A stretch of DNA of 63,927 nucleotides, counting the filler, from Hausera hauseri (Eukaryota): the NCBI GenBank assembly GCA_046269625.1. It is 11 parts of 11 records of this genome, joined end to end, with 100 filler letters (N's around TTAATTAATTAA, not from the genome) between each part and the next. Parts side by side here need not be neighbours in the genome. Positions count along the whole stretch, not along the records: positions 7,252 to 12,219 come from JBJURY010375146.1; positions 12,320 to 16,454 come from JBJURY010739988.1; 9 more parts are not named here. One strand, 5' to 3'. The notes under the pieces were generated by a model. It worked only from the letters and a program-made list of their open reading frames with translations. It did no database searches and was not told the origin of the DNA. A program made the translations under genes and the position numbers. This document shows, in pieces, positions 1,323-34,632 of the stretch (position 1 is its first letter; each line of letters opens with the position of its first letter).

Positions 1323-4300
1323 CTATAATTGGTCTATTTCTTCGACTTCCTTAGGGACTGGCGAATTTTCCTCATTTTCCTTATCGCGTTCTTCAATGAG
1401 GGAGAAATAAGGTTTGACATTAGCGATGTTCTCTGGAACTGAGTTGTTTCCTTTTCTTACGATAATGGTATTTCCTTGTCTCTCAACGACTTTGAATGGG
1501 CCGGTATAAACTGGGGCCAACTTACTACGGCCAAATTGTTGGTCTTTGACTAACACGTACGTAGCCTCTTCCAATGACTTGGGCATGAAAACATGGGGAT
1601 TTTCTGCAGTAAAATCCGGAGACAATGGTAAGGACAAGAAAGTTTTCAATTGCTGAACGTATCCCTGCGAAGGATTTATTTGCATCTTGCTATGGTCCTC
1701 CAATATAGCACCAGGCAACCTAGCCTCTTGTCCAAACATTAATAAATATGGAGAAACCCCATCTTCATCTAATGGCGCTGCCCTAAGACAAAGTAAAGCA
1801 TAAGGTAATACATGCAACCAATTAAGCTTGCCATTACCTCTACCATCCAGCAATAGAGCCCGCAACGCATTCAGAAGAGTTCGATGGGCATTTTCCAGAA
1901 GACCATTACTCCACGGCGAATTTGGACTAGTAGTATTGTGGTTTGTTCCCAGTTCTTTCATAATTTCTTCAAATAAAGCACCGGTGAATTGGCCTCCATT
2001 GTCGGACACGAATTTACGAACACAGCCCACCAAGGGTAGAAATTCGCGACAAATCTTATCGACGATAGTTCGCGCTTCAATGCTTCGCAAAGGATATGCA
2101 TAAATATAACGGCTAAACCTATCGATAAGCGTAAGAATGTACTTGTATCCATCAACGGGTGGCATCTTAACTAAATCAATGTGGACTACCTCGAATTTTA
2201 CCGAAACTGGCTGGAAAGCTTGATATGGAGGACTGATGTATCGGCTAACCTTTGCCCGCTGGCACGCGCTACATGCTCTGACCATTTCTTTCACACTTTT
2301 TTGCATATCCTTCCAAACGAAATCTTTCCTAATCCTAGTCAATGTGCGCCTACAACCAAAATGTCCCTGGTTATGGATAGCTAATGTAACAATTGACTGG
2401 AAAGCAAGTGGAACGTAAACTCGAGTAGACTTGGGGTATGATGTATCAACAAATAATTGTACCTGCTCCCCTTTATAATCAATCATTCTTTGTTCTAATT
2501 TCAAGCTAGACTTGATCTCCCCCTTTAAAATCCCTTGCAAGTACAAATCCTCACTCAACTTCTGACTCAAGGCCTTGTAATCTATGGGATCAGCTGAGGG
2601 ACGCCAGTAAATGGCTGCACTAGGGATAGTATTACAAGTATCAGGTTGTTGTTTATGGGGTATATGCGACGTAAGATTGGTTTTCCTCGAATCCTCATTC
2701 CAGATTGGGGGAATCGACGACGAATTGGACAAAGGAAGGGGCCGATCCAGAACACCGGTGCATGAGTCACTACCTGTTGTTCCTCTTACATGTAGAGGAT
2801 TAAGAGGACTTGCAATTGAGACAGTCCCTTGTGAATTATTCACATTCAAGGCCGGATCAACTTTAGGAGGTCCTTCTTGACAACCTCTGTTGGATAACTC
2901 TACTGATGGGCTATAGACTTGAATATCCAAGCCTACAACGGGTTCTGCATCGTCTGAATTTGTAGCAGGTAGTTCTGCATCTCTTGTTTGACCGGATACG
3001 CGGCTTAAGAAATCAGCCAGCATGTTTTCACCTGATTTCAGGTGTTCTACAAGAATATCAAACTCAGAAAGGTAAGCAAGATATCTCTCCTCTCGCGCAC
3101 AGAGCCGAGGACTATCTGTCTCTCTGCGCATGGCCTGTACAACAGACATATTATCGCAGAAAACACGCACCTCACGTCCGCGCAATAAATGCGAGTATTT
3201 CCTGAATGTACCAACAACTGCTAAGAGTTCTTTCGAGAAAATCGTATATGATTTTTCAGCACCCTTTAGTGTATAACTGTAGAATCCCAAAGGGGTAAAG
3301 CCTGCTTCTCTTTCAGCTAAAACTACTCCCGAGAGCGCGAAATTAGAAGCGTCAGTATATACGCGAATGTTATCATCCTCTGCAGGAAATGTGAGGGGAA
3401 TAGCCCTTTGTAAAGCTAGTTTTGCATTGTCAAAAGCTTGAATTGCCAACTCCGTCCATTTAACTTTGACCCGGGAAGGAGGACCCCCTCTAAGGAACCT
3501 CAGTAAGGGGGAAATAACGTCACCTATCCCAGCTATTGAACCCCGAAAATAGTTCAAGCTGCCAATAAACGAGCGGAGTTGCTTAATTGTCTTAGGTCTG
3601 GGGATACGAGAAATGGCTTCTACTTTGCTCGGATCAGGAGTGACAGAGTTAAATGCGACTTTATACCCTAAATATTGTACCTCATTTTGTCCTATGCGAC
3701 ATTTGTCAGCATTCAACCGAATGTTGAATTGCTGAAGTCGATAAAATATCAAGTCTAAGGTTCGCATGTGTTCCTCTTCTGTCTTAGTTGCCACCAGAAT
3801 ATCGTCTATGTAGACGAAAATATTTGGGATACGAGATAATATGAGAGTAATGTACCTCATGAAACTGGTTGGGGAAACGGTTAACCCCTCCACTATTTTA
3901 GTATAACTATAACTCCCAAAAGGAGTGTTGATAGTCAAGTATTTCTGGCAATCCTTGGCTATTGGCAAAGTGTAGAAGGCCTTTGAGATGTCCAAACAGC
4001 TGAAATATGTACACCCAAGTAAACCAATTTTGAAGTCGTCAATATTTGGTAAACTGTAATTGTCCTTGACAACTCTCTTATTCAGCAAACGAAGGTCAGA
4101 GACGATTCGGATTTTACCAGAGGCCTTTGGAACAACAGAGATAGGAAACCCCCAGTCGCTAACAGCAGGCTCCAAAACTCCCCGATCCAAGAGGCTTTTA
4201 ATCTCCTCTCTAGCTGCATTGTAATACCGGACTGGTAATCGGCGAGCTTTAATGTTGATCGGGTTTTGGGGGTGTTTCACTGAAAAGGAGTACGGCGAGC

Positions 4301-5288
4301 TCTTTGCCAGTGCCTTTAGCTCATGAGGCCGAAGACAATACTCAGAATGCACCCCTTTAGTCTTGACATCCTCCGGTATAACTAAGGTGTGAGGGAAAGG
4401 TATATCGACAGTGGTAAAGAGAAATGAGTATCGCTGTAAAAGTGATGCGTAAGCAGCTTTGTGTTGTGGTAGAGAAGGAGAAAACTGCACGTTCTCACAT
4501 CCCAATATTCCCCTTTTAACAAAGTTTTCCCTTGATTTTAAAGGTATACGCTCCTTCGAACGCTTTACAAATAAAGTACCGGTATTCAAGTTGATGGTTA
4601 AGCCATGCATACCCAGGAAGTCAACGCCTAGTATATTATGCATCACATCAGCAACTAAAAACGTGTGTACAAATTTTACTCTCTCACTCAGAACTATTTC
4701 TTTCAAAACCTTGTCATATACATTTACTCTAGTTCCATTTGCAGCAATCAGGGATCCTATAATTGCCTTATTCTTATCGGCTGATAAAGCTTTTATAATC
4801 GAGCAATGGGCTCCTGTGTCGATCATATATGAGCATAAATTCTTATAACAGTATACAAATGGGACACTGCCCCTGAGCCACGTTGATCGATCACATTTCT
4901 TGGTACAAAAATTTTTCGTTGACCGAAGGTTAGGATGCGCAGACGCAACCTTCGAACGACAATCATTCTGTACATATTTTCCCGAAGAATGATCCCCGCT
5001 CGTACCAGTTTCACTTTCTGTCAACGAAAACAAGCGAATGTGGTCCAAACGTGTCTCAGGTAATGCAGACCCCCAATTACCACTGGAATATTTATGAGAG
5101 TTTGAAACATTTCCCTCCCATCTTCTATTGCCGACAATGCGAGAGTTTACCTTACTATCTAAAACATCAGGGCTTACATGACTAACATTATTGGGACTTT
5201 TATTAAACTTTAGTCTCTGGTGCGCTGTACAATTCCGCCCAGGGGGAGAGTATCTCAACGTGACCACCTGGGCAGCTCCACGTTTCCC
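1323..5288 (-). CDS. pol: Pol polyprotein (protease, RT, RNase H, integrase), expressed by -1 frameshift from gag
   Basis: MIDTGAHCS protease, YIDDILV RT, YTDASNFA...KELLAV RNase H, HNQGHFG...CSAC zinc finger, VHIDL/SDNG/LENAH integrase triad, YTGPF motif. Confidence 0.95.
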   Translation of the reverse strand, partial: GKRGAAQVVTLRYSPPGRNCTAHQRLKFNKSPNNVSHVSPDVLDSKVNSRIVGNRRWEGNVSNSHKYSSGNWGSALPETRLDHIRLFSLTESETGTSGDHSSGKYVQNDCRSKVASAHPNLRSTKNFCTKKCDRSTWLRGSVPFVYCYKNLCSYMIDTGAHCSIIKALSADKNKAIIGSLIAANGTRVNVYDKVLKEIVLSERVKFVHTFLVADVMHNILGVDFLGMHGLTINLNTGTLFVKRSKERIPLKSRENFVKRGILGCENVQFSPSLPQHKAAYASLLQRYSFLFTTVDIPFPHTLVIPEDVKTKGVHSEYCLRPHELKALAKSSPYSFSVKHPQNPINIKARRLPVRYYNAAREEIKSLLDRGVLEPAVSDWGFPISVVPKASGKIRIVSDLRLLNKRVVKDNYSLPNIDDFKIGLLGCTYFSCLDISKAFYTLPIAKDCQKYLTINTPFGSYSYTKIVEGLTVSPTSFMRYITLILSRIPNIFVYIDDILVATKTEEEHMRTLDLIFYRLQQFNIRLNADKCRIGQNEVQYLGYKVAFNSVTPDPSKVEAISRIPRPKTIKQLRSFIGSLNYFRGSIAGIGDVISPLLRFLRGGPPSRVKVKWTELAIQAFDNAKLALQRAIPLTFPAEDDNIRVYTDASNFALSGVVLAEREAGFTPLGFYSYTLKGAEKSYTIFSKELLAVVGTFRKYSHLLRGREVRVFCDNMSVVQAMRRETDSPRLCAREERYLAYLSEFDILVEHLKSGENMLADFLSRVSGQTRDAELPATNSDDAEPVVGLDIQVYSPSVELSNRGCQEGPPKVDPALNVNNSQGTVSIASPLNPLHVRGTTGSDSCTGVLDRPLPLSNSSSIPPIWNEDSRKTNLTSHIPHKQQPDTCNTIPSAAIYWRPSADPIDYKALSQKLSEDLYLQGILKGEIKSSLKLEQRMIDYKGEQVQLFVDTSYPKSTRVYVPLAFQSIVTLAIHNQGHFGCRRTLTRIRKDFVWKDMQKSVKEMVRACSACQRAKVSRYISPPYQAFQPVSVKFEVVHIDLVKMPPVDGYKYILTLIDRFSRYIYAYPLRSIEARTIVDKICREFLPLVGCVRKFVSDNGGQFTGALFEEIMKELGTNHNTTSPNSPWSNGLLENAHRTLLNALRALLLDGRGNGKLNWLHVLPYALLCLRAAPLDEDGVSPYLLMFGQEARLPGAILEDHSKMQINPSQGYVQQLKTFLSLPLSPDFTAENPHVFMPKSLEEATYVLVKDQQFGRSKLAPVYTGPFKVVERQGNTIIVRKGNNSVPENIANVKPYFSLIEERDKENEENSPVPKEVEEIDQL
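5235..5288 (-). promoter_or_regulatory. -1 programmed ribosomal frameshift signal: G GGA AAC, 6-nt spacer, 9-bp stem
   Basis: GGGAAAC at 5288-5282 in the gag frame (P-G-N); the -1 frame reads GKRGAAQVVTLR into pol; stem CUGCCCAGG (5275-5267) pairs with CCUGGGCGG (5243-5235). Confidence 0.85.
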
Positions 5289-6871
5289 GGCTTCACAGGC
5301 TTCCTTGTAGTTCCTCTAGCCCAGTGGAAACGTTCATCTGATGCAGCAGTCGAAGTATTCTGTCGGTCTCTTAAATCATTTTCCACACCTGTTTGTCTCT
5401 TATAGGCGACAACTCCTCTGTTTACGTCCGTCCTTTGGAAATTCCATGAACAATCTGGCTTAGAACACTGTCGTGCTGAATTGCCGAAGTTAAAATGGTG
5501 CCAGCAATATGTGCACCCAAATGGTAGCGCTCCTGGAAGTCTTCCAGTTCTCACAATATCCTCTGCATGATTGTTATTCCTGGTACCAGGTCTGCGCCAA
5601 TTCCCTTCATTTTCTTTCTCTTCGTCGTTGTGTCTTTTCTTCTCCCGCGGATAAGGGTTCCCAGGCTCTTCGAAGTTCCCTAATCTTCCAGTCAATCCCC
5701 TTTGAGCTTTAACCTGTGAATTCTTCATATCCTGAAGTTCCCTTTTTACAATATCCAATTCAAGCTTCAAATTGATGAATTCTGGATCAGGCACTGACTT
5801 TGGTTCAACTGAAGAGCCGTCAATCTCCGACTTACTATGCAGGCCAGCGGTATAACCCAAAACACAATCTCCAGCTACAGAACTTGCCTGGATTTGATCG
5901 CCTCTTATTGCTAACTCTTTCAACGACGCTTCTGGAGACTGTGCAAGCGCCATGCGGAGGTTAAGAGGCAGGGCTTGTAGGAATATACCTCGGAAGATTT
6001 TACCTAACTCACTCCCCTCATTGATCTGGTAGTCATCCCCGAAGAAACTCAACATTCTATGAAGGCAGTCCGAAGCATTTTCATCTGCGAGCATCGTAAA
6101 ATTTTTGAGTTCCTCTATTTTTTGAGATGTGGAAAGAGAATATCGACGATCCAAACCTTCAAAAAGTGAATTTAAGCCTCCATCATGAGCATCTGCATCC
6201 AATCGGAAAGGTAGATCAGTCGGTAAGGAGGGTAAGAGCAACTTCATTTTTTCTCTGGCATCAACAATACCATAAAGGCGGAAAACGTAACTCACCCTCT
6301 CCTTCCATTGCAGGTAACCCCGTGGGTTTAAAAGGGGCAGGGTAACTCTATTTAGTTGACAGGAGGCTCTGGCCTCTTGGAGGTCGTGAAAATGGGAATG
6401 CACATCATTCCCGCCTTGTGAATCGACCGATGAGATCCTAGCAGAAAGGCGTGAGAGAGATCGGTGGCGGTTCCGATTTCTTCCAGCAGGAGGAGTTGTT
6501 TGATAACCTTGTCTACGACTTCTATGATACAATTCTTCTGCACTGGAAATTGAAGCATCATCATTATCCTCTCCCAAGCCGGAACTTTCATCTGAAAGGC
6601 AAAGATTCGGCCGTGAGCCCTCTCTTATGTTTCCTGCATCTGCACCACTCCACTTAGTGATCTGATAATTTTTAGAAGCTCCACTTAAATGCCTACTCTT
6701 TGCTCTAATGGGTAATGATTGCTTGGAAACATCCGAGACAGAACGACGTTGCTTCCTCCTCCCCCGGTTTAACGAGTTGTCCTCATTTTCCATCAAGGCT
6801 GAATCGGGTGGCGCATCAGGAGTATTCCTTCCCCTTTTCAACTGGGCCGCTCGTCTGGTTTGGGCAACCAT
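5255..6871 (-). CDS. gag: Gag polyprotein
   Basis: 538 aa; helical capsid-like core (FLQALPLNLRMALA); CWHHFNFGNSARQCSKPDC = Cx2Hx9Cx4C knuckle; lies upstream of pol. Confidence 0.9.
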   Translation of the reverse strand: MVAQTRRAAQLKRGRNTPDAPPDSALMENEDNSLNRGRRKQRRSVSDVSKQSLPIRAKSRHLSGASKNYQITKWSGADAGNIREGSRPNLCLSDESSGLGEDNDDASISSAEELYHRSRRQGYQTTPPAGRNRNRHRSLSRLSARISSVDSQGGNDVHSHFHDLQEARASCQLNRVTLPLLNPRGYLQWKERVSYVFRLYGIVDAREKMKLLLPSLPTDLPFRLDADAHDGGLNSLFEGLDRRYSLSTSQKIEELKNFTMLADENASDCLHRMLSFFGDDYQINEGSELGKIFRGIFLQALPLNLRMALAQSPEASLKELAIRGDQIQASSVAGDCVLGYTAGLHSKSEIDGSSVEPKSVPDPEFINLKLELDIVKRELQDMKNSQVKAQRGLTGRLGNFEEPGNPYPREKKRHNDEEKENEGNWRRPGTRNNNHAEDIVRTGRLPGALPFGCTYCWHHFNFGNSARQCSKPDCSWNFQRTDVNRGVVAYKRQTGVENDLRDRQNTSTAASDERFHWARGTTRKPVKPGNVELPRWSR

Positions 6872-7151
6872 GGTGTTACTGATTTATTAAGAGAGGAGAA
6901 TTCGAGCAGAAATAAATGCTTAGACGCACCAGAGAAAAAGAACTAAAGCTATGAATATATATATACATATATATGATGTATAAAAAAATTATCAATATCT
7001 TAATTTAATAGATTGTCGATATATCAAACTAAATCACCGATATATCGATTAACATATCACAATAACCAATTACTTGTAAGTTATCGAGAACGGTAAAAAA
7101 AATTGCAATTCAAGTAGAAAATACAGCACTTTACATCAAAAAAAAACATTA

Positions 7152-7769: not shown

Positions 7770-10427
7770 AACATTTTAATTGCCGGATATTGACGAAAAT
7801 GAAGAAACTGTTGTATCTTTTATATGGGGTACGATTCACCCCGAATCGGGAGACGAATAAAAGTGATTTGATTATCGATAACTGGTACATTCCAATGATT
7901 GAACTGTGTCCGCAAACGGCTTTAGGACAACGAGAAGCACGATCCATGATAGTAAGTGTGTTGATATCCGTGGTCGGCAGGTAGAGGACCAACTAAATCA
8001 CGATGAACTGTATGAAAGCATGATGTACAGGGAAAGTGATAAAGTGGTGGTTTAAACTGTTTGTTGATTTTGTATTTTTGACATGCTATACATTCTTTAA
8101 ACCAGTCCTGTACATCTTTGCGCATTGATGGCCATACTAAATGACATTGAAGCAGGCGAAAGTTGCCTTCGAACCTGGATGATGGAGTGAATGCGTATGA
8201 ATAAAAGCTGGCTTTTGTAAAGGTGGTGCTAGGGTGACCTTTTTATTGCCTGTATTAGACGTATCAAAAGCTATTCCATCAATGATTTCGTAGGATTTGA
8301 AAGAAATGAGTAACTCAGCAGATGGTTGATTGGCCTTTAAGACTTCAGATGAGAATATGGGCTCAACTGTAATGGATCCAACCGATCTCGATAGAAAGTC
8401 AGCTACCAAGTTATCCGTGCCTGAGATATATTCCAAAGTAAAACTTAACGTAGATAGGTATGATATATGTCTCTCTTGCCTTGGTGATGGCTCGTTTAAC
8501 GACATGATGTGCAGCAGAGGCTTATGGTCAGTTTGAATGACGAATGGACGAGAAAGAAGCAAGTGTTTGAAGTGTTTTACTGCCAGAATTATGGCGAGTA
8601 ACTCACGATTAAATGTGGAGTAACGGTTCTCGGGTTGTGTAAGTTTCCTACAATAAAATTTTAATAGCTGGTCGACGCCATTAGAGATTTGGTGTAGTAC
8701 AGCGCCAGTAGCTGTGGTTGAGGCATCGGTTGTGAGAATAAGATCTGCCTTGGGTTTTGGATAAGTTAGTATTTTTACGGTTTTAAGAAAATCGCGCAAG
8801 TGATCAAACTTGGTTACCAAATCAGGAGTCCAGTGGATCAGCTGCCTCTTTTTACAGGATGATAGACTTGAGAAAGGTGCTGTAAGCTTAGAGCAATGTG
8901 GTACGTATTTGTGGATGAAGTGGGGTGTCCCTAAGAAACTTCTCATGTCCGTGGTGGTCGTTGGTAGAGTTGTGTTCTTTAATTGTTGTAATCGATCCGG
9001 TTGTGGTGAATGGCCGTCAGAAGTGATGACGTAACCTAGGAAATTTACACGTTTCTGAAAGAAATGACATTTCTCAAAGTTGACTTGCAAATTGCTATGA
9101 TGTAATCTTTGAAAGATAATACGAAGGTGTTCTTGATGTTGTTTGACGGACGTAGAGGCAACTAATATGTCATCAATGTATGGATGAGCGAAATATAGGC
9201 CTGAAAGTACGATATTAATGTGCTGTTGAAGTTGGAAAAGCACTACGTAAACCAAATGGCATAAAGATATACTCGTAGAGGCCAAATGGAGTAATAATTG
9301 CAGTTTTCGGAATATCATCAGGTGTAACCGGAATTTTATGATATGCTTTATGCAAGTCAGTTGTGGAGTAAGTGTTAGTGTTTGTAAGACGGTGCAGAAT
9401 ATCATTTATGAGAGGTAAAGGATAAGCTTCCATGACTGTTAGATTATTCAACTGCCGATAATCACCGCATGGTCTGTATGTGCCATGTTTTTTCGTCACA
9501 ACATGCAAAGGCAAAGCCCATGGTGATTTGGAATGTCGAATAATGCCCGCCTTTTCTAGTTTATTGAACTCAGATTCAACAGCTTTTCGTCTGCGAGGTG
9601 AAAGTGGCCTTACCTTTTGTCTGATAGGTCTTTGGTGTTCGGTGACTATGTGGTGATATGTTGTAGAATGCTGTTTGAAATTGATGTCCTTCTTAAGAGT
9701 ACGGGAACGAAAAGTCTTTATGTAGGATTTGAGCTCAGAATCCAACGATAAGAATGATGATTGCATATCATTATAAGAGTCGGTTGCTGTAATCGATGTA
9801 GAATAACTAAATGCTTCATTAACGACATTTGGTTCAGCCGAATGTTTCAAAATTGATTTGTTCCCACTTGACGAGATTGAAAATATTGATGAAATGTTAA
9901 GAGTGTTGTTGTCAACCGATAAACACAATGTCAAATTGACATTTAAATGAGCAGAGGAAGACAAAGTGTCCGACTGGTAGTTTGCTGAGCATTTGGTAGA
10001 GTTTGCAAAGAACTTCCTGCGCAGGAGGCATTTATGCTTGCAATCGAATAACAAATCGTAATCAGCCAGGAAATCGGAGGCTATTATGGGCGATCTGATG
10101 TTGGCTATGTGAAATTTCCAGGTGAATTTCCCTGGTAGATTGTAAAATGTGAAAGTCAGTTCTGTGGTACCTACAATGTTCAGAGGTTGACCACAGGCAG
10201 TGAAGAGTGCAGGAGCGAAAACTGTGTTAGATGTAGGAGCGAAAGACAAAGGAAGTAGTGAAAAAGCAGCTCCTGAATCAATAAGGAAATCTGTGTGATG
10301 TGTCTCCAAATAACAGGTCAGCTTTCAACAAAAAGACTGCAGAGGCGGTGTTGAAACGGCCAGAAGATTGAGCAATGTTGCCTTCGCCAGAAGGTGTCAT
10401 ATAATCTGGCGACATTATGAGTTTTTT
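7770..10427 (-). pseudogene. pol: Frameshifted Ty3/Gypsy pol, Ubl-Gag family copy B
   Basis: LIDSGAAFS protease, [10 protein letters not shown] and YIDDILV RT, TTDASTTA RNase H, HHPG...CIAC integrase; several frameshifts; integrase truncated. Confidence 0.9.
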
Positions 10428-11457
10428 GGAGGATTTGGAGGAAAGGAAGAAGAGGAAAAAAAGCTAGGAGATTTTGCATTGTAATGTCTACAACCAGGCA
10501 CACATGATCTGGCCTGTGACTGATATTTGTTGTGGTATATACAAATAGGGTTGTTTACAGCGTATCGCTCACTAAAGAATAGACAGTCCAAGAAACATTT
10601 CCTTACTTCCTTTCGAAAACGCGTGTGGTAAAAACAAGTCACGCGTCCGCCAGGTGAAATAGACCGAGAAGAGTGCATTGAAGTGCCTCGCTCCCGTGAA
10701 CGTCTGGTTTCACTTCGTCGAGGTCCATTAAGATTACTTAGTTGGGTTGTAATGGCCAAAACTGATTGTTGTAGCATGTCAAACTGTTGCTGCATCACTT
10801 GCAACTGTTGAGTAAAGAATGTTGCATGTGTAGTTGGAGCACATGTGGTTGCAGCAGCAACAGGGAGAAAACTGTTAGTACGAAGAATCTCATAGGATTT
10901 GTCAGCCATTATTGCTAGTTTTTCAATAGCAGTGGATTCGTCGACAACAGTTAGTAAGGCTCTGATTGAATTGGGCAGAGACGATAAGAAATAACGGCGA
11001 ATTAAATCCGCGTTATTCGTAGGGGTCACTCCAAGCTCGCTGAGCTGCAGAATGGCCATTTGCAGAAAGTCGGATGGCTTTTGGTTTCCAATTGCGTGGT
11101 CATTAAAATACTTTTGTATTATGTTGTCAATCGATAGATCCGTGACATGCAGTACAGCTTCGCAGAGTGTCTCGTAAGGCGTCGAGGACTATAGCAGCTC
11201 GGAGATATTATTAATCTGCTGCTTGACGTTGGCAGGCGGAAGAATTAAAAGGCTATTGGCTCGCAAAAAAGAGTCTGTTATATTGTTCGATTTTAGCCAC
11301 TGTTGATGGAATTGGAGCCATGGTTTGCTGGAGTTGTTTTTATCGAGGAAGAATTTACCAAAAGGTAAGTGTAATGAACCTCGTGACTGTTGGGAGTGTG
11401 GCAAACGTTGCCCGTATTTGTGAATTTGTCATCCGAGCAGGATGGATTTGGATCCGA
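10415..11457 (-). pseudogene. gag: Gag with tandem CHCC knuckles, copy B
   Basis: RYFLSSLPNSIRALLTVVDES; CFYHTRFRKEVRKCFLDC and CIYHNKYQSQARSCVPGC; interrupted by stops and frameshifts. Confidence 0.85.
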
Positions 11458-11685
11458 TCCACCCCGAAGGCGAAAATGGAGCATAAGGTGGATGACTGGA
11501 CGTTCGCGACACATGATAGACAAGAGTGAGTCGACGGAATGTACAGTGATACCTCGATGTGTGAAATAGAAATTGGCAGTGTCGAGTGACGAGAATAGAG
11601 AGGTGTATAATAGCTGCGCAGTGGATTTGATTGGAGCCTTAATGGTCGTTATGTGTTGATTGTTATTGAAGATAAGGAAGGAGAG
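11458..11685 (-). other. Ubiquitin-like domain ending RLRGG, fused to the Gag N-terminus (copy B)
   Basis: Manual translation FLIFNNNQHITTIKAPIKSTAQLLYTSLFSSLDTANFYFTHRGITVHSVDSLLSIMCRERPVIHLMLHFRLRGG (74 aa). Confidence 0.7.
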
Positions 11686-11796
11686 TTGTACCGAAGCAAT
11701 ACCAGGAGAATGGTAAAATGCAAAAGACGCTTGTGCGGTTTGCTTCCGTGTTAAAAGGAGATATGGACGTGCAGCCGGGATAACGGTGGCAAGTGA

Positions 11797-12171
11797 TTAT
11801 TTGAACGTATGAAACATACGAACACCAGTAATTGGTTGGATAGTGGTGCCCACAAGGCATCCCATTCTTTTGTTTCTAAATCTACTTGATCGTGTTTCAT
11901 GTCGGAAAAAGATGTGCGACAGCATAAATGTACAATGGCTTATCCAATCGTCAATCGTTTGACGTAATGCAGTAAATGCATTTTGGTGAATGTAGACTTG
12001 TTCAGTAATCGACTTGACGTGTATAACGAGAAAACCTCTACACCTATCAACGTGCAATAGCATTATCGCATTGCAAGATTGGTGTTTCATTATAATGTCT
12101 TTAAACAATTGTTTCTGTTTCAAAAATGTTGACGTGCGCATGGATGTGGTGAGGACGCTGATATTCTTCAC
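11797..12171 (-). pseudogene. Unknown cargo ORF, in frame with the Ubl domain across one TAA
   Basis: 12171 to 11458 is 238 codons; only one stop (11797-11799) separates it from the Ubl domain. Confidence 0.45.
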
Positions 12172-12343
12172 TGATTATTCGCAAAGTAACGAAAATTCAG
12201 ATAAAAACTACTATCATGANNNNNNNNNNNNNNNNNNNNNNNNNNNNNNNNNNNNNNNNNNNNTTAATTAATTAANNNNNNNNNNNNNNNNNNNNNNNNN
12301 NNNNNNNNNNNNNNNNNNNAAATCGCGTGACCAGCCACAGCTG

Positions 12344-14581
12344 ATGTCATCGCAAATTAGCATGCACACATATGCGCCACGTACAATAGGTCCCATTTTT
12401 ACATCGTTATTATTGGTTATGTGGTCACCATGTGATACACACACAACTTTGCGTAAGTATTTAAACAATGATTGTTCTCATTCAGCCCCTTTTCGCAATT
12501 CAATTCAATTCCGTGTAAAACAATTCAAAATCAGTACAATTCAAAAACGAACTTATCAATTCAGTCAAGACCATCTCAAGATAAAACTAATGGATACAAG
12601 ATCAACAAATACAATGCATCATCAAAGCATCTCGTCCACAAACTTTCCGCTGTTTCACGCAGATATCCTGCCAATCGATCAATTATTAGCCCAATACGCT
12701 GCAAAAAACTCTTCATTCACCAAAACAATGTCCAGGACATTCTACAATCACATAAGAAGAGAGACATTAATCTACCCAGAATTGTTGTTCCCGCTTGTAA
12801 CAAAAATTCCAAATCATTTAAAGTATGGGCCTACTGTGAACCGGCATGCAAAAATAGTCACTGTAACCGAATCTAAACAAAGGAATATAGAGGAATTCAT
12901 CACTGAATGTCCATCAATAGAAGGCTTAATCATTCATATGGCACGAGGAACAGCCGTTTTGAAAACCAAGAAAAATACCCAATATACATTATCCAACATC
13001 TCCACGATATTTGAAGAAGAATCACTGGCAATAAATACACCTATGAGTGTAGACTTGATTCAATTCCGGCCAAATCGGATTCCCATGATAATTATGCTGG
13101 AATGGTTCTTACCGGAGAGGCATTTGGCCTTACCTAGACCTATGGTTCTAGTCCAGACTCCGCCAGAATTTATTATGAACGCTCATCTGAACTATTTACA
13201 AACCAGTCAATCAGGCACAATACGAATTTTGAATGTATCGTTTGGATTTTCAGTAGACAATAACCCATTACCGTTAGAGGTAACAGTATCAAATATCAAA
13301 GGCAAAACTTTATATCACTCGTTAGTTGTGAATCGAATCAGAATACACAATTGCAATACTGGACGACACGGTATTGACTTCCAGGCATTGCAGTCTCATG
13401 GTCTCGATATTTATGAGGTATCAAAAGAAGTTATTCACTGGCTGTTTGGATCAATCGTGATAGGACTCGATATCCACCGAACATTGCAGATGTTCGATGT
13501 ACCTTCGAATTACTTAGCCGGAGCAATTGACCTACTAAAACACCCCGAGGTTACAGGAGTAACGTTTCACACAATAGATATCACAAATGTAGCCCGAGAA
13601 CTCAAGTTACCAAAGTTCAAAAACGGACAAATGTATGAACAGAATACAAAGGGAAAATTAGAACTAGTAATGGATATTCTTCAGAGGATCAAAGATATTA
13701 AACAAGAGCCGCATTGGACACCTGATAATATTATGGAAAATATAATTGATGTGGGAGAGTTGTTTTATTGTCGCGAAAAATATTTACAAGGATTTGCTTG
13801 GATTCACAAAATTGAAGTTGAGATAACTAATACAAAGGATCAGAAAGTGGGTGTTAATAAAGAAGATTTTATTGAGGAAGATCTAGACTTAGCCACACCA
13901 GATAACATCGAATTACAAGATGTTGAAAGTGAGAGTTCAGAAGACATAATCGATAACATGGACATTCAGCAGATATTGGCTCCGCAAACGTTAGAAAATG
14001 AAAGCGAATTTGGACGTTGGAATTACCCTGCTAAAACAGACAATAAGGAAATCCAAACTCAGTTATCCGTTACAGACAAATTGGCCCTCCAGATCGAGCA
14101 TACTTTAACTAACAAAGAAGAAATAAAATTCAATTTTGGAATTGTCATTAAGAAGAAATACCTGAACCTACCCGTGCCTATACATAATGTTGAAAGACCG
14201 TATTACCTAAAAGATACGGTTACATCAAGAAAAGTATTCAAATGGAATACGGAAAACAATCTACTCATTGGTATGATTTATCAAAAGCCGGACAATCATT
14301 ATTTCATAATACCGTATCGATCAACATTAACAGTGCTTAATTTATCCGTTAACTACGGAGTTACACTCAGCACTAAATTACGGATTCGAATGGACAATGC
14401 GATGACGTCAGACGCAATCACAGAAACTTTTTTCAATGGTCACCTCAAATATTTACTTTTGATGAAGAATAAGCAGCCGACATTGATACCAATTGAGCGT
14501 CCACGACCAGGATCCAATCCAGATAAAGAAGACTATATCAACACTCGCATTAACTATGAAAACGTCGATTTGGATATGTAA
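12344..14581 (+). CDS. 745-aa protein with a degenerate DEDDh (REX4/ISG20-like) exonuclease domain; likely a 3' accessory ORF of an LTR element; may be 5'-incomplete
   Basis: EVTVSNIKGKTLYHSLV...NTGRHGI...EVSKEVIHWLFGSIVIGLDIHRTL matches the REX4-type pattern; ExoI D-x-E is replaced by N-V-S; followed by PPT and LTR. Confidence 0.6.
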   Translation: MSSQISMHTYAPRTIGPIFTSLLLVMWSPCDTHTTLRKYLNNDCSHSAPFRNSIQFRVKQFKISTIQKRTYQFSQDHLKIKLMDTRSTNTMHHQSISSTNFPLFHADILPIDQLLAQYAAKNSSFTKTMSRTFYNHIRRETLIYPELLFPLVTKIPNHLKYGPTVNRHAKIVTVTESKQRNIEEFITECPSIEGLIIHMARGTAVLKTKKNTQYTLSNISTIFEEESLAINTPMSVDLIQFRPNRIPMIIMLEWFLPERHLALPRPMVLVQTPPEFIMNAHLNYLQTSQSGTIRILNVSFGFSVDNNPLPLEVTVSNIKGKTLYHSLVVNRIRIHNCNTGRHGIDFQALQSHGLDIYEVSKEVIHWLFGSIVIGLDIHRTLQMFDVPSNYLAGAIDLLKHPEVTGVTFHTIDITNVARELKLPKFKNGQMYEQNTKGKLELVMDILQRIKDIKQEPHWTPDNIMENIIDVGELFYCREKYLQGFAWIHKIEVEITNTKDQKVGVNKEDFIEEDLDLATPDNIELQDVESESSEDIIDNMDIQQILAPQTLENESEFGRWNYPAKTDNKEIQTQLSVTDKLALQIEHTLTNKEEIKFNFGIVIKKKYLNLPVPIHNVERPYYLKDTVTSRKVFKWNTENNLLIGMIYQKPDNHYFIIPYRSTLTVLNLSVNYGVTLSTKLRIRMDNAMTSDAITETFFNGHLKYLLLMKNKQPTLIPIERPRPGSNPDKEDYINTRINYENVDLDM

Positions 14582-18151: not shown

Positions 18152-19452
18152 ATGTCTCTTATTCATCCCGGCTCGTGCGAATGTCTTCATTCCGGATTGG
18201 ATTTGTTTAGCGTTCCGCCAACACAAACGGCTGTAGAGGAAGGACAGTTTGTAGAAATTCACCCTCTCGCTTCTCTCGCCCCTGGGGCGCCCATCGAATT
18301 TGTAATATCCGGAAACGGCGAAGAGTAAATAGATTTGTTTAATACTTTTTTACACATGAGAGCCTAAGTCGTTTTAGCCTATGGCAACAACATACCAGAA
18401 GACGCGGTTGTGGCCCCAGTCAACAATTACCTGCACAGTTTATTTGCTCAAGTGGACGTAGCCCTGAATGATACGTTGGTCACGCCTAGTGAAAATACGT
18501 ATCCTTGCAGATCTTACCTGGAATCGACCTTAAATTATGGCCAGGAAGCCAAAAAGGGTCACCTGACGGCCGCTCTATACTACAACGACAGTTCAAAATT
18601 TTTCGAGGATGCACAAGGTGAATTTAAATTTGGAATAAAAATGTGCCGCGAGTTGGCTGGAGGTAGTCGAGAAATGGATATGATCGGAAAGTTGCACTCT
18701 GACATTTTCGAACAAGACCGATACTTGCTGAATGGCATAGATGTAAAAATAAAGCTCACCCCGGCCAAGGACGCGTTCAACTTTATAGCCGACGATCCAG
18801 CGGAAGATTACAAGACAATTATAACGTCAGCTGTCCTGGTAGTCAGGAAAGCCAAGTTAAATCCAGCCATCTCTCTGGCCCAAGAAAAGGCCTTGACTAC
18901 AGCGAACGGAAAGTACCCCATCAAACGAGTCGTAATAAAGACCTTGTCCGTCGCAAGTGGAATATTGTCGCACATTCAAGATAACCTTTTCCTCAGTCAA
19001 ACGCTGACGCGGATCGTGGTCGGGTTAGTAAACGCCTCAGCTTTTAACGGTGCCTACAAAAATAACCCGTTCAACTTTCAACATTTTGACTTGACTTACT
19101 TGAACGTTACCATCAACGGGCGGACGGCCACGGGGAAGCCATTAAGGGTCGATTTTGACCGCGACCATTACATCCGAGCTTTCTTTGGCACCAATCTAGC
19201 CATGGGTCTCATTGGTAAGGATGCATGCTGCGATGTCGACTACAAGACGGTTATGCCCTTTACGCTTTTGATCTAAGTCCCAGCCTTTTGGACGGTGACC
19301 AGTCTGAACTCGCGAAAAACGGGCCTCTTTCATTAGTGTTTAAATTTTCCACCGCGACACCGCATCCGTTGCAAGTGGTGGTGTACGCCGATCAAAACTC
19401 TAAAATTGAAATTTCCAAGACTCGTCATGTGTTACTAGACTTTGTGGCTTAA
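18152..19452 (+). pseudogene. Double jelly-roll major capsid protein (Polinton PY/hexon-like), with stops and a frameshift
   Basis: MSLIHPGSCECLHSGLDLFSVPPTQTAVE N-terminus; PVNNYLHSLFAQVDV; LLNGIDVKIKL; AFNGAYKNNPFNFQHF; GYALYAFDLSP. Confidence 0.9.
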
Positions 19453-19455
19453 AAG

Positions 19456-19890
19456 ATGGATACTAGAGAGCTATACGCGATTCTAAAATCTGACATTTTC
19501 GTCTGCCGACATCTTGTCAAAGTCTTACCTTGCAATGTGTTACCAAAGCTTATCGACCAGACTAAATCAGCAGTCTTCGTCGTAAATACAAATACCAGCG
19601 AGCGTCATGGCACGCATTGGAGGGCTTTGTACTACGACGGTGTTGGCACTTTTCATTACTTTGATTCGTTTTGGTTTCCACTGCTGTACGCAGACATGGC
19701 GGCCTTTATTAAACGTAACACGCACATACCTGTCATCTATAAACCGCGCCCAATACGAGATGTGCTTAGTAACACGTGTGGGCTCTACGTCATTTATTTT
19801 GTCCTGATTAAATGTTGAGGTGGATCAATGCGCCGCATCATCATGCCTTTTACATCTACGCGCCAGTACTCCAATGATAGGCTCGTTTGG
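19456..19890 (+). pseudogene. Adenain-like cysteine protease, premature stop at 19816
   Basis: VVNT...GTHW...YFDSF...SNTCGLY catalytic H/D/C motifs; the oxyanion-hole Q appears as R. Confidence 0.85.
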
Positions 19891-20784: not shown

Positions 20785-22550
20785 ACATGAGTCCCAATCC
20801 GTTCCGCAGATTTCCAGTTGATTATCAAATCACAGATTTACGATCTTTAATTTATGATATCACCACCATTTTCGGTATTAATCATGATCCTTCTGCAATT
20901 AGACGATCAGACATATTACTAGACCTCGAACAATGTAAACAAGGATTTGAAGACTGTCAGAAAATACGTGATAGAGGTCAAGGAGAAATTAATTAAAATT
21001 GAAACGTTACAAACTGCATTGTTAGATTATAAAAGCAATACCTATGTCAGACTCAGTGGACAAGATGTTGAACGAGGAACGTTTTTTCATAGACACTGTG
21101 TACTGCTTCATCAGAATTGTGATTTTCCTCTACATGTTCCCCTTCACAAGCTCTATTCGGGACAAGCTGACTTCTTTGTTAGTTTTTTGTCTCAGCGAAT
21201 ATACTGCATTGTGTTTTGAACTCGGGTTTAGTCAAATCGATCCGAATACCTTTGTTTGGAAGCTCAATTTGAAGTTTTTTCAAACAATACTTAAAGTGTA
21301 ATCGAACACTTCATTGCATCAGGACAGTCGAAATGGCCAATCAGGGTTATCCTGCTTTGTTTTCACGGCGTTGCATGTCAGAAATCACAAGGACCATCTA
21401 CGGTTTTTACAGACCCTCATCTGCTATGTCCGTTGGAGAAACTGGTGCACGCGGGAGTAAAATTAATTGTGTATGAATTTGTCGGCGATTCTTATTCTCA
21501 TGTATCTTTGACGAATAACTTTTCTTTCTTCCCGTTGCTATTTTTTATCTGATTCCCAGCCTCCGTGCGTACATGTCTTGTCATACTTCCATTTCGCACA
21601 CCTCAAACTTCTATGCCCCCGCTGTACCCTCGTTTACAGCTTTAAATCTTCTACGACGTTATTTCCACCAATTTTCTGCCTTTGGATTAAAATTTGCTAT
21701 AAATTTGATAATAAGTTGAGCAAGACATGGAGCCAGTTTATTCTCCTTTCATTATTACCTCCCTTGATGATATCATTTGGGGATTTATCGAGATTCATTT
21801 ACCCGATGATTCTCTACAGTACTTTTCATCCCTGTTTCAACTCGAAATTCAATCTATTTATCAGCCAACCCCGCCACATTCCATACTTTCGGAATATCTT
21901 GCTGGAACCATCAATTACTCACAGAGCATTTTGATTCTTTTACATAACCGAATACACGTGGAACTGATAATGAAAGTTATGGATACTTCCGCTGTTACAT
22001 TGTTTTTGATTTTGTCCAATATATGTGGCGACTTGACGGGAATATACTTATTACCACATCCCATGTTTCTTGTTTCATATGTTAGTAACGGAGTAAGGAT
22101 ACGTGTATGGTTTCGCAGTACGCACAACAATGTTGTTGAGATTCTGGTATTTTTTGGTGATTTGGATTGGTATTCACCATCATTCTTTAGAATTTGGCGT
22201 TCTTTTGTACGTGTTCTCATACAGTCAGGTTCATATCGAAATTCTACTACGAAGGGAATGTCCACACTTTACCGAAAATTTTGTCAACGACATCTACTGC
22301 ATATTTAAAGTCTTTTATTCTTTCAACAATGCCACTGATTGACAAAGTTTCTACTGATACTATCCCGTTTATAGCTTTTCCTCGTGGCTTTATGTTAGTA
22401 CAATCGAAACAAAAAATATCTCTGGCTGGATCCACCGAAGGGGATCCGATCATCCCGGATATTTAGGTACATCACAGCGTGAGCAACTATCCAGCTGTAT
22501 GGACTATGTCAATGGATCCTACGCGACGACCCTTTACCTTTCCGTACCAC
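20785..22550 (+). other. Unidentified fragmented ORFs upstream of Ubl-Gag copy E (cargo position)
   Basis: Several short ORFs (e.g. 21044-21301, 21727-22308); no family recognised. Confidence 0.25.
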
Positions 22551-22569
22551 ACACTAGGGCTTGTGACAC

Positions 22570-25004
22570 CACTCTCGTTTTCCTTTTCAATGAATAACTC
22601 AAATACCAACATACAATATTAAATACCATACAGACTCACTGTACTTACACAAATATGTACAACATTTTACTTCTCTTTCAAACTTTTACTCAACTATTAA
22701 TACTCTACCACTCGTTAATCCCAATGTCCGAAATTTTTTCTCGCCTTCGACCACATATCTCGTTATCCATATACATTCGCGCATACGCGGTGGAATAGAC
22801 TCTTCACCTACCATTGACACCACTGACAAAGCTGCCTATAAACCATCACATTTTGTTTTTCACCAGAAATTAACGACCGCAACCACGCAATCTACTTTCA
22901 CTAGTTACATCTTTCATTTCGCCAGCCAAACACACTTCTTATCAGTGCACGGAATATTTTATCGATCGCGAAAAATCCAACAAAACCTGGCTCAGCTTTT
23001 ACAAACTTTGGCTGCAGTTTAATAACATTACTGATTCATTAGCAAAAGCTCATAGTTTACTTTGCCTCTTACCAAACATGATAAAGACTTCTCCTCACAA
23101 CATTTTAGATATTTCAACAATCCGACACGTACACACATCTCTATAACGCAGTCTTAAAACTTACCGAACTGTCTATGGATTCCATAATCCATAGATTCTT
23201 TAGTGATAATGCCGTGGACACACAAAAGCCTTCTGCGTTCCTACGTACGTCGTTGACTCACCTACAAACGCTAGGTGTAACTAGTCAGCATAATTCATAC
23301 ATTATGCGACAATATTTCTTAAACGCGTTGCCTATACAAATTAGGGCACTCCTTACCGTTGTCGAGGAATCTACGGCGTTGGATAAATTGGCGGAATTGG
23401 CTGATAAAACACATGAAGTGCTACAATTGAATTCCCAACGAACAATTTCCAACAAGCGACAATCAACTTTATACAACTATAGAGCAACAGTTGAGCCAAT
23501 TACACGCTGAAAATTTAGCACTACAACAGACAATAAATAACATTAATAATAGGTTGGGCGATCTTTCATTACCACGCGAACTGTTCCTATTCATAACCAT
23601 ACTCGTTCTGTTTTCAGAAACAGGTCACCATCGCCTACACGATCTTTTATGTGCTATTATCATAGCAAATTTAACAGTAAAGCTAATAAATGCTGTTTAG
23701 GGTGTAGGTATTACACTCCAAATTTACATTCAAACAAAATAGTTTGCATCTACCATGCCTAATTTGGATTCCACGCTCAGAAATGTCTTTCAGGCTGCAA
23801 CAATAAGAACAACGCTACCATTCTACCGACAGACGTTTTATTTCCCCTAGTAATAGTCGGCCGATCTCACCAATCCAAAAAAACTAATTTGGCCGGCAGT
23901 ACTCACGGCAGAGTCCGGCAAAAACAACTTCTCTAATACTACCTGCCGACACACTTCCTTTGCAATCTTTACACTAAAGGCTTCGATAAACACACCAAAA
24001 ACTCAATCCATACACTTCCTTATCGACGCAGGCGCTCCGGTTTCTCTGCTATCACTCACTTTCCCTGTACAAAATTTACCATTCAAAGCTAAATCGTTAT
24101 TTACGGCTTCAGAACAACCGCTAGACATTTCAGGTTTATCTACATTGTCGTTCACCTTACCAAACCTTCAGTTCACGTTTTACTGGACCTTTACCGTCGC
24201 TAACGTCCGCACAGCAATTCTAGGTTCGGATTTCTTATCGCACTATAATCTTTTAGTTGATTGCAAATAACAATTTTTGAAACGTAACACTACTGGATAT
24301 CCTACCGAACGAATAAATAGTATAGCCGCTAAGGCGCAAACGATCTTCCCGCGGAAGCCTATACTCAAAAATCATGTAAGTAATCCAAACTTCTTCAACA
24401 AGCATTTTTCATTTCGTAAATTTTTTAATGATAATATCGGTATTCAATCGAGATTTGGTTTTGATAACTACGATTGCGTTGGTTCAGTACATTCACTAGA
24501 CAAAATTACCTCTTCAAACACTACTTTTAATACTACTATCCTACACCAAATTCCCCTCAATTTCAATAACTCGCAAACATCACTCGTCACTGCACATATT
24601 GACTGAACACCACCAACATCACCAAATTTCTCTCAATTGCCTGTAAGTCTACGGCAATACATAAACACTTCATGCCCCCACTTAATCCAGAAGGATCAAA
24701 TCTTCACACCTGAAAACAACACTTTTCATCACATCATAACCCAACACCAAAGACCTATTCGGCAAAAGGTACGCCCATTGTCACCTTGTTGTAGGCAAGC
24801 AGTCAAAGCGGAATTTCTAGACCTTGAACGCTCCGGCATTGTACGCAGATCTAAATCACCGTGCTCTTGGTTTTTACACGTTGTCCAAAAAAGATGGATC
24901 CGTCCGACCTTGCGGTGATTACCGTCAACTAAACACTTTGACTGTTATGGATGCATACCCTTTACCATTAATTAAGGATATCCTGTACGGGCTTAATTCC
25001 ACTA
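22570..25004 (+). mobile_element. Ubl-Gag family copy E: Ubl (ends IHSRIRGG at 22794), gag, AAAAAAC frameshift, protease and RT start; truncated
   Basis: LVIHIHSRIRGGIDSSPTIDTTDK; YFLNALPIQIRALLTVVEES; tandem CYYH/CIYH knuckles; FLIDAGAPVS; [10 protein letters not shown]. Confidence 0.85.
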
Positions 25005-29718: not shown

Positions 29719-32105
29719 GCTAAATCGATCGTCGAATAAACTGAGGTAGTATTAAGTCGGTGCAATATGTCCTTGATTAATGGTAATGGGTATGCGTCCA
29801 TTGTTGTTAACGTATTAAGTTGACGATAATCACCACATGGTCTGAAAGATCCATCCTTTTTTGTACAACATGGAGAGGTGAAGACCATGGTGATTTAGAT
29901 CTACGGACGATACCTGATTGTTCTAGCTCCATAAATTCAGATTCTACTGCTTGTCTGCGTCGCGGTGACAATGGACGGACCTTTTGTCTTATTGGCCTTT
30001 GGTGTGTTGTAATTATATGGTGATAAATGCTATTTACTGGAGTGAAATTCCTATCTTTCTGAAGTATCCGAGGACAATAGGTATGAACAAATTGTTGTAG
30101 ACTTGAAGGTAGTTGCTGTAATGTTGTAACAGATGATAGATCAAGATTGCTAGCAGTACTTGATATATGATGACTAGTTGTTGGTGAGGAATCAGGTGGA
30201 GCCTGAAATAGTATTGTCTGGTCTGGAACCATGTTGGAGTAAGTGTTAGTGTTCGGTGTTTTAACAGAAAATACCAGATTGTTATTGAGATTAGCACGAA
30301 GTGTCGAGTGTTTTAAAATAGATGGCTTATTTAACGTGGACTGTGTTGTCGTTGTTATGCTGTCTATTTTTGTATTAAGGTTTTCAGATGTATTTGCTTT
30401 CAAACAGCGTCTTTTACAATCGACTAGTAAATTATAATGTGAAAGGAAATCTGAGCCAAGTATTGCAGTCTGGACGTTAGCGACTGTAAACGTCCAATGA
30501 AATGAAGAGGAAAAATTTTGTAAAGTGAAAGAAAGTTTGCAGGTTCCGGAGACACGGAGAGCTTGTCCGGATGCGGTGTATAATGGTTTTGCTTTAGATA
30601 AAGAATGTTGTACTGGAAAAGAAAATGGAAGCAGTGATATTACAGCACCAGTATCAATTAGAAAATCTACGGATTGAATATTAGGATTGGATATAGTAGC
30701 TTTTAATGTGAAAACGGCAAATGAAACGTGTCGACTAGAGGAGTTAGATAGATTGCCATTGCCAGCATCTGCCGAGAATACTGGCGGCGAAATCAGTTTT
30801 TTGGATAGGTGAGCTAGGACGGTTATTATTAGAAATGTTAATACGTCTATCGAATGAACAATTCTTGTTGGTTTTGTAGGTACAGCCAGTAATATAACTC
30901 CGAGCGTTAGAACCAAATTTTGCATGGTAGATACAAATTATATTACTTGAGTCTAAATTTGGCGAGTAATATTTACAACCTAAGCAACACTTATTTTTAT
31001 TGTTATTGAATTTAATGTGATAGTAGCAGATGAGGGATCTCGTAGGTGACGGTGGTCGATATCTAGAAGGAGAACGTTTTCGATTTGACGAAGGCACATT
31101 ACGACGCTGTAAAGAAAGATTATTCAGTTTTTTAGTGATAGAGTTTATGGTGTGATAGAGTGTCGCATTTTCGGTGCGTAATTCGCTTAAGTGATGTTCA
31201 AGTGAAACATTGTTAGTAGTAAGTGCTGCTGAAATAACTGGCTGAATGTGTACGTTCAGAACCTCATATGTTTTATCCTCCAGTTCGGCCAATTTATCTA
31301 GTGTTGTCGATTCTTCAACGACAGTGAGTAAGGCCCTAATTTATATAGGCAATGCGTTCAAGAAGTACCGTCGCAAAAGATCGGCGTTATGTTGTTTAGT
31401 TACGCTAAATGTTTGTAGCTGCACGAGTGAGGTTCGGAGGAAATCAGATGGTTTTGCGCCCCCACCGCATTGTCATTAAAGAAACGGTGAATTATTGAGT
31501 ACATAGATGGTTCGGTAAGTTTCACAACAGCGTTATAAAGATGCCTGTATGGATCAGGTTTCTGGAAGATATAGAGCAAATCATGATTTGCCATTTTTAC
31601 CGTAGTTGGAAGAAGACAAAGCAGGTTATGGGCCTTGGTTACTGGATCGGTGATATTGTTTGATTGTAGCCATAGTTTGTGGAAGCTAAGCCACGTTTTG
31701 TTAGACTGTCCATGGTCAATAAATACTCTGTGCACTGAGAAGTGTGTTTGACCGGCGAGGTTGTAGAAATATAATTACTAAAAGACGGCGTGGTTACGGT
31801 CAATGGTTTTTGTTGAAAAGGAAAATGTAATGTTTTTTGAGTGTTTTTATCAGTAGTATCGATGGTGGGGGAAGAATTCATCCCACCACGTATGCGAATG
31901 TGTATGTGTAAGATAATACAATTGTTTGAAGGTACAGAGAGGTTGCGAAGTTTGGAATTAGTTATTGGTATATTATTATGCGTTAGATAAAACTCAGTGA
32001 TGTTGAAGGCGTGTAGTGTGTAGTTGTGTAGGTAGGATGCATCTATCGAATTTATCATTCTGTGTGCAGTAAATGTTGATTGTTTAGAAAGAAAAGGAAA
32101 GAAAT
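29719..32105 (-). mobile_element. Ubl-Gag family copy G: Ubl (ends HIRIRGG at 31882), gag, AAAAAAC frameshift, protease and RT start; truncated
   Basis: FYLTHNNIPI...LHIHIRIRGGMNSSPTIDTTDK; CYYHIKFNNNKNKCCLGC and CIYHAKFGSNARSYITGC; LIDTGAVIS; [10 protein letters not shown]. Confidence 0.85.
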
Positions 32106-32147
32106 ATTCGGTGTAAATTCAAGTGTTTGGTGTGGTAACGAAACACA

Positions 32148-32876: not shown

Positions 32877-32927
32877 TCTCGCAGACCAATCAGTAGGGTT
32901 GTTTCTGATGCCATTTGTTCTAAATGA

Positions 32928-34382: not shown

Positions 34383-34632
34383 TTCACTACTTACAAAACC
34401 GCGGAAGATGATGTGTCACGGGGCAATGTTGTGTCGAAGTACGTGTCAATTATATAATAGACAGATAAATAAGGGAAAAGGGGGTAAGAAAAATGGTAAA
34501 TAAAAAATGAATAAAAAAGCATTTGTCGAATGAACAATGTATAATGGTGGATCTCACCTTATCGTGTACCCTTTTCTCCATGATCGGTGGTATTGGGTTA
34601 GTTTTCGATATAGACAATGCAAAGGTTTTACA

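Follow-up and report, generated by a model that had tools for sequence, protein, structure and literature searches.

A family of CsRn1-like Ty3/gypsy retrotransposons carries, directly before Gag, a candidate ubiquitin-like domain (Ubl) that ends in Gly-Gly (GG), and the sequence ahead of this domain varies from copy to copy and contains pieces of host genes. The reading we favour, with a probability of roughly 0.55, is that these pieces are same-strand scraps captured by reverse transcriptase and mostly in frame with the Ubl and Gag, and that host cleavage after GG, which is predicted, separates them from Gag. The constant Ubl-GG-Gag unit, the variable host mosaics upstream of it, and the orientation and frame of these mosaics are read directly from the DNA.

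The window, which is the whole stretch of 63,927 nucleotides, consists of 11 joined contigs of 4-10 kb each (labelled A to K), split by runs of N with a stop linker, and mobile elements are abundant across these contigs according to Pfam. The host, judged from its gene pieces, is an animal. Decayed copies of one Ty3/gypsy family, with protease (PR), reverse transcriptase (RT), RNase H (RH), integrase (IN) and a DUF7041-type Gag, are found in contigs B, E, G and I; the pol order is PR-RT-RH-IN, and the DUF7041 Pfam matches (E 6e-5 and 2e-3) are both below the cut-off. Since a profile of the Ubl matches only these 4 loci among 1408 six-frame segments of the window, they are all the copies that it holds, and the copy sample is unselected. 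Synonymous sites between the copies are saturated, so the copies represent old sublineages. In B, both Gag (linker, DUF7041-type region and two CHCC motifs; 10415-11457) and pol (protease, RT, RNase H and the start of integrase; 7922-10324) lie on the minus strand, the former broken and the latter broken and truncated. Two CX2HX9CX3C motifs are present in the Gag of B and of the database proteins P0001, P0002, P0004 and P0005, and one in the intact stretch of G; the tandem motifs are 31 residues apart (window 10500-10640; P0001, P0002, P0004 and P0005).

The known CsRn1 clade (CsRn1, PwRn1 and AgCR1-14) is described in PMC2582038 as having one CX2HX9CX3C Gag motif and a tRNA-Trp primer site. 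The present family shares with that clade, as described there, the CX2HX9CX3C motif, the DUF7041-type region, the PR-RT-RH-IN order and a G-rich tract followed by TGT, whereas the Ubl-GG before Gag, the second CHCC motif and the upstream host mosaics set it apart (PMC2582038). A tRNA-Trp primer site and the direct LTR pair of the clade, 146-368 bp with a 4-bp target duplication (PMC2582038), were likewise not found here. No such primer site occurs in the window at up to 1 mismatch, the copies being decayed, and between −500 and +400 of the leader there is one 3-mismatch site in E and none in B, G or I. No direct LTR pair or target-site duplication was found in the window, where contigs end inside elements. 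We call the family CsRn1-like and do not file it as a member of the CsRn1 clade.

In all four copies, a domain of about 75-80 aa ending in R-x-x-GG directly precedes Gag. In B it spans 78 aa and ends in RLRGG (11458-11691, minus strand); the leader and Ubl of E (22467-22794, plus strand) and of G (31882-32147, minus strand), and the H-x-P-G motif and Ubl of I (48436-48673, plus strand), all end in RIRGG and have one frame change inside the Ubl. A database search with the Gag of B, restricted to proteins above 450 aa, gave 3 matches among 1292 candidates, and the Ubl is present in all 3, which brings the total to 7/7 copies reaching the region. Their C-terminal motifs are RLRGG, RIRGG (three times), RLRGG, RLLGG and RLCGG, a C-terminal hydrophobic strand is present, and the residue after GG is S, T, M or I, never Pro, in all seven; a Pro directly after GG blocks cleavage (PMC5381556). 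The ordinary relative P0006 has a Gag that starts without a Ubl (P0002 and P0006 are 28% identical over 148 aa).

The domain is, as a lead, ubiquitin-like, with a putative beta-grasp fold. Atlas features place it nearest to ubiquitin-family clusters (0.86-0.89), with the best named matches falling in one family or clan in 10/10 cases, which we treat as a lead only. In the PDB, the Ubl profile aligned with polyubiquitin over the C-terminal strand alone, and with SDE2 over 49 positions (E 0.028). SDE2 and FUBI-eS30 are cleaved after GG, and resemble the present arrangement in that an N-terminal Ubl ending in GG is fused to an unrelated protein; they differ in being host genes that have no upstream cargo, and the profile matches to them are near chance (E 0.03-1). 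A Pfam scan gave no ubiquitin match for the Ubl, and no longer homologue was found for the Ubl ORF of B. The single-sequence model of the domain is too poor to use (pLDDT 46; best Z of the fold search 3.8). Over the Ubl pN < pS in 6/6 pairs, with synonymous sites saturated; a protein-guided alignment favours this result. The Ubl profile, when run against 1.84 billion representatives, gave 4 matches, and the 3 that were examined are unrelated repeat proteins. A second Ubl inside the ORF of G, hinted at by tblastx, was also rejected: its score of 10 bits falls inside the range given by shuffles or on its border, and the adjoining stretch is DPAGT1. By analogy with known ubiquitin fusions, host deubiquitinases are predicted to cut after Gly-Gly and so free Gag.

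It had been proposed, in an earlier note on this DNA, that similarity among copies stops just upstream of the Ubl. Instead, it extends 15-45 codons further upstream and includes an H-x-P-G motif; this defines a shared coding leader, and the variable part starts beyond it. For example, 22438-22598 in E matches 48323-48489 in I, with 0/100 shuffles as good. The coding leader of B (11692-11796, minus strand) has its H-x-P-G at 11712, and its last 15-20 codons are common to other copies. The TGA of G falls within the stretch common to the copies, which identifies this stop as a later mutation.

Upstream of the leader, each copy carries different sequence. The longest cargo is the mosaic of G (32148-34415, minus strand), which is in one frame and continuous with the Ubl leader. 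In PDB searches it matched OGDH (2-oxoglutarate dehydrogenase E1; 34212-34370, E 3.6e-11), WDR11 (33384-34073, E 6.8e-4) and DPAGT1 (32298-32501, E 5.7e-13). These pieces are collinear with the proteins that they match (230 versus 217 aa for WDR11, 68 versus 69 for DPAGT1), as are the OGDH pieces of E and G. The mosaic has no frame change over 2.3 kb, and the gag-pol of the same copy is broken several times. Further along the G contig, an AWS-SET ORF of 845 uninterrupted codons (34633-37170, minus strand), which is presumably SETD2-like, lies in a frame other than that of the leader and is either cargo or flank. Its C-terminal 90 codons look unrelated, and an imperfect inverted repeat (37195-37339 and 37486-37630) is located upstream of it.

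The cargo of E is an OGDH scrap (21031-21381, plus strand; NCBIfam E 1e-18), and the other sense frames of this copy gave no PDB match under E 0.28. An apparent integrase remnant upstream in E was rejected, as it lies inside the OGDH piece in another frame. OGDH scraps are thus found upstream in both of the sister copies E and G, from different parts of the gene; either the capture took place once, in a common ancestor, or an abundant mRNA was captured more than once. The cargo of I is a C-terminal piece of USP7 (46835-48170, plus strand) of 1.3 kb with three internal frame breaks; it matches Pfam USP7_C2 with E 1e-13 and, in the part that corresponds to human residues 683 to 873, is longer by about 60 codons. 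Two same-strand ORFs, 45104-45970 (288 codons) and 46287-46835 (about 180 codons), lie between the LTR head and USP7 in this contig; neither has a Pfam or NCBIfam match, and the second shares its reading frame with the beginning of the USP7 piece.

In B, the upstream ORF (125 codons stop-to-stop, 11797-12174, minus strand) has no Pfam match, and an Atlas recognition value of 1071 with no family. Part of it (11890-12096) resembles cystathionine gamma/beta-lyase weakly (PDB E 0.29; NCBIfam E 0.022 and 0.11), at a level where an unrelated NCBIfam match reaches E 0.012; the lyase matches are concordant, and the ORF is probably a decayed host scrap of a cystathionine lyase. As the contig of B ends at 12219, nothing further upstream is visible in this copy.

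All 6 firm pieces (USP7, OGDH twice, WDR11, DPAGT1 and AWS-SET) are on the element's strand, and no opposite-strand host piece was detected upstream of any Ubl with Pfam or NCBIfam, the PDB searches covering sense frames only. The strand scan applied Pfam to 104 ORFs on both strands and NCBIfam to six frames upstream in E, G and I; upstream of B, NCBIfam was applied to three sense frames. That the slot holds working host domains is not supported, since the scraps look decayed. Their sequences suggest passengers that are not maintained for function: in the database protein P0001, the motifs of a CARM1 piece are altered relative to the PDB chain, the USP7 piece is broken, and the database proteins P0003 and P0004 have diverged at similar rates in cargo and Gag.

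The frame relationships were then compared with those claimed previously. In B, 125 open codons (11797-12174), a single TAA, 35 leader codons and the Ubl through RLRGG all share one frame, as had been described. The ORF of G was also correctly linked to the Ubl across one TGA: 32148-32927 comprises 259 open codons, and the same frame continues into the first Ubl strand. In I, the ORF at 47461-48696 runs from USP7 into the N-half of the Ubl with no stop between, again as claimed, and the last 240 USP7 codons (47461-48170) are in the leader frame. The general claim that upstream sequence stays in frame is thus borne out in B, G and I, and fails in E, where the OGDH piece and a 197-codon ORF are both in a frame other than that of the leader. 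B is the one copy with an unbroken frame all the way from the leader to GG. In E, G and I the frame shifts within the Ubl, and "in frame" therefore applies to the first strand of the domain.

Stop codons follow the same pattern. The leader frame of B has 3 stops in the last 500 nt versus 10.0 expected from base shuffles (P 0.0065), that of I has 0 versus 9.3 expected over the same length, and that of G has 6 in 762 codons versus 63 and 56 in the other two frames; in E, stop depletion is limited to the last 300 nt. The proposed comparison with the 1/3 expected by chance gives a divided answer. Counted by junction, 5/6 are in frame (three in G, one in I and one in B, with E as the miss; P 0.018), or 4/5 when B is excluded (P 0.045), in a count that is small and was defined after seeing the data. 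Counted by copy, 3/4 are in frame (P 0.11), or 2/3 excluding B (P 0.26), which is not significant. Database fusions were left out of these counts because they had been pre-selected by a length above 450 aa.

The same layout is found in database proteins. P0001 contains a CARM1 piece, the leader, the Ubl and Gag in one protein, and P0003 and P0004 contain DIS3-like and CNOT1 pieces followed by leader, Ubl and Gag. The proposed cargo-Ubl-GG-Gag order is therefore supported by same-strand host pieces in G, I, E and, weakly, B, and by host piece, Ubl and Gag in one protein at two independent database loci. None of 10 window ORFs is in the protein collection (0/10), searches for the locus in viral and metagenome contigs returned nothing usable (one phage locus in the viral set), and no RNA dataset among the listed data contains the stretch.

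Fusions of this type could arise as assembly or gene-calling chimeras around a high-copy repeat, an explanation that we consider very improbable. The contigs are short, none of those listed spans all of I, and the stretch is present in one sequencing run only, which is possibly its source. In addition, P0005 passes in frame from a bacterial DUF5777 protein into the middle part of a Gag of this family and is most likely an assembly chimera, so chimeric records do exist in the protein collection. Chimeric joints would not, however, recur just ahead of one and the same leader with strand and frame matching. An identical fusion is kept in both P0003 and P0004, although these records differ by 15 substitutions and one in-frame gap, and the fusions in the window are read directly from DNA.

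A second account holds that capture is real and the frame incidental: scraps would fill the terminal repeat, Gag would start at a leader ATG, and the Ubl would have another purpose (N-end control, folding aid or decoy). It is unlikely in our view, yet a good deal better placed than assembly artefacts. A candidate start Met lies 14 codons before H-x-P-G in I and E, and if translation begins there, the frame ahead of it would not have to be read; this Met is, however, not kept in 5/7 copies. P0002 would suit such an account, as it has a 95-aa leader only, followed by Ubl-Gag, and no recognisable cargo. So would the off-frame cargo of E, the by-copy test, and the divergence between P0003 and P0004, which is about equal in cargo and Ubl-Gag (9 and 6 substitutions in 626 and 370 aa, respectively). 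In contrast, three unrelated genes in the 762-codon frame of G are unexpected under random joining, and the two genes in the single frame of P0003/P0004 are likewise unexpected.

The position of the slot can be seen in contig I, which contains two tandem copies. The upstream sister copy ends (44906-45095, plus strand) with a G9 polypurine tract (44906-44914) and an LTR head that starts from TGTGG at 44919. The coding leader of I (48255-48433, plus strand) is an inverted, diverged copy of this LTR head, with an alignment score of 143 versus a shuffle maximum of 118 (0/200), and is partly shared with E. Only in I are element parts visible on both sides of the cargo, as LTR head and then inverted head. 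This differs from the expected slot between a normal 5' LTR and the Ubl: the slot of I is behind the LTR head, and no direct repeat of the head was found beside any Ubl. The simplest layout, drawn from this one tandem junction, would be a shared terminal repeat in which host-derived sequence forms a variable middle between constant ends, and the cargo slot is probably at or in the terminal repeat.

Depth along contig I was taken as the summed depth of contigs from one sequencing run, possibly the source, placed on it. It is 3,400-46,000 over the upstream sister copy and LTR head, falls from 18,054 in the bin 44728-45060 to 74 in the next, stays at 30-128 over 45061-48057, and then rises to 288 over 48058-48390, to 2,141 at the Ubl and to 7,000-55,000 along most of gag-pol. 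The upstream DNA of I is thus 15- to more than 1000-fold rarer than the element body, which means that the USP7 cargo is not family-wide. The USP7-leader joint is also spanned by a second contig, 297 bases long and differing at 32 of them (11%), and is therefore present in at least two diverged copies.

These data bear on the possibility that the upstream DNA is flank, with an open-ended element inserting in gene-fragment-rich DNA and falling in frame by chance, as in a gene trap. The depth drop upstream of about 48400 (2,141 to 288 to about 100), the inverted LTR-derived stretch that adjoins the Ubl in I, and host similarity that stops 55-90 codons before H-x-P-G in G, I, P0001 and P0004 would all fit it. 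Against this stand the orientation of every identified piece on the element's strand, the in-frame interior of the mosaics, the recurrence of the USP7 joint in a diverged contig and the presence of OGDH pieces upstream of both E and G, and we judge this possibility improbable, somewhat less so than chimeric assembly. The earlier note had named single-copy host flank outside a 5' LTR next to the Ubl as the finding that would overturn it. The upstream DNA of I is indeed low-copy; it is, however, a mosaic of unrelated broken genes and not an intact host gene, a diverged contig bridges its joint with the leader, and neither a direct-repeat LTR nor a tRNA-Trp site lies by the Ubl.

In the mechanism that we propose under the favoured reading, reverse transcriptase would switch onto co-packaged host mRNAs at or inside the terminal repeat, a position suggested by the I mosaic, which sits between LTR head and inverted head. 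Translation would start in the variable part. Off-frame scraps would yield no Gag, and such a copy would not be passed on, so that selection would act on frame and not on cargo function. In-frame scraps would leave foreign sequence attached to the N-terminus of Gag unless this is cut off, and cleavage after GG would give Gag a fixed N-terminus, whatever precedes it. The proposal would account jointly for the strand, mosaicism, frame bias and conserved GG; it does not explain why the primer site is missing, why the leader contains an inverted LTR head, or why the 2.3-kb mosaic of G is unbroken when the gag-pol of this copy is not. More tentatively, and with less than even confidence, we suggest that the terminal repeat is a standing mRNA-capture slot translated before Gag, with the Ubl as its release linker, and that in-frame multi-gene chimeras keep forming there.

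When an LTR element captures host mRNA, its own genes are normally lost in the process. If the proposal is true, a cleavable Ubl before Gag would keep the element autonomous while it carries and translates shuffled host sequence. Chimeric proteins could then arise in frame by a direct path, and the arrangement would be nature's parallel to the ubiquitin-fusion trick of pestiviruses. The model predicts a simple statistic, namely cargo frame and strand across many copies, and would explain host-gene debris that would be misleading for gene annotation in this genome.

The closest working analogy to the Ubl before Gag is the ubiquitin insertion of pestiviruses (BVDV), which allows hydrolases of the cell to define where the following viral protein begins, regardless of what lies upstream (PMC5381556). 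BVDV, as described there, is an RNA virus with near-identical host ubiquitin in sporadic recombinants (PMC5381556), whereas the Ubl here is old, strongly diverged and fixed throughout a family of retrotransposons. It is established that LTR elements can capture several mRNAs through template switching, giving same-strand multi-gene mosaics (PMC5131818). Animal LTR-mediated retroposition and maize Bs1 resemble the present copies in having same-strand pieces of unlinked genes tied to an LTR element, with the mRNA replacing internal sequence between LTR parts (PMC5131818); here, in contrast, gag-pol is kept and the pieces lie upstream, tending to be in frame with a Gag that follows a Ubl. The main text of PMC5131818 nowhere uses the word ubiquitin.

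The giant planarian elements Burro/GYPSM1 likewise encode a gypsy polyprotein that includes domains of host origin and one of Ubi2/SUMO-like type (PMC6431247). In Burro, Gag is N-terminal and the Ubl internal among fixed domains (PMC6431247), unlike the present Ubl, which stands before Gag, ends in GG and has variable sequence ahead. The 2A-like sequences of non-LTR retrotransposons are also a separation signal built into an ORF (PMC3708506); they act by ribosome skipping in LINE-type elements rather than by proteolysis after a Ubl, and the abstract of that paper mentions no variable host cargo (PMC3708506). In the literature covered, which leaves out most subscription journals and Repbase, there was no report of a Ubl-GG before Gag with variable cargo.

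Several minor features were also observed. The LTR head of contig I opens with a 13-base palindrome-like TGTGG-N3-CCACA (44919-44931), and folds no better than shuffles (z 0.2). There are exactly two occurrences of the central 12-mer of this palindrome in the window, and the other one is 130 nt upstream of the leader motif of B. At 11843-11862 (minus strand), 16/17 positions agree with the LTR start of contig I in reverse complement, which is not significant as a long alignment (21/200 shuffles). Both tandem copies in contig I have a long, Ser/Pro/Thr-rich and pyrimidine-rich tail after integrase (44146-44790 and 52927-53385). Contig A carries a different gypsy element (1323-6883) with overlapping open frames for gag (542 aa) and pol (1330 aa), in which no Ubl or CHCC match was found. 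In contigs J and K, pieces of a Monjiviricetes fusion glycoprotein (PF24664) lie beside Gag-like ORFs (53936-54565 and 60147-63535). Contig D has a Pfam match to an adenovirus-type protease (18368-19818), and in contig H DNA-polymerase-like ORFs form a long inverted repeat (38457-43295); we take both to be Polinton-like remnants. Contig C contains a 750-codon ORF (12320-14581) without a Pfam match.
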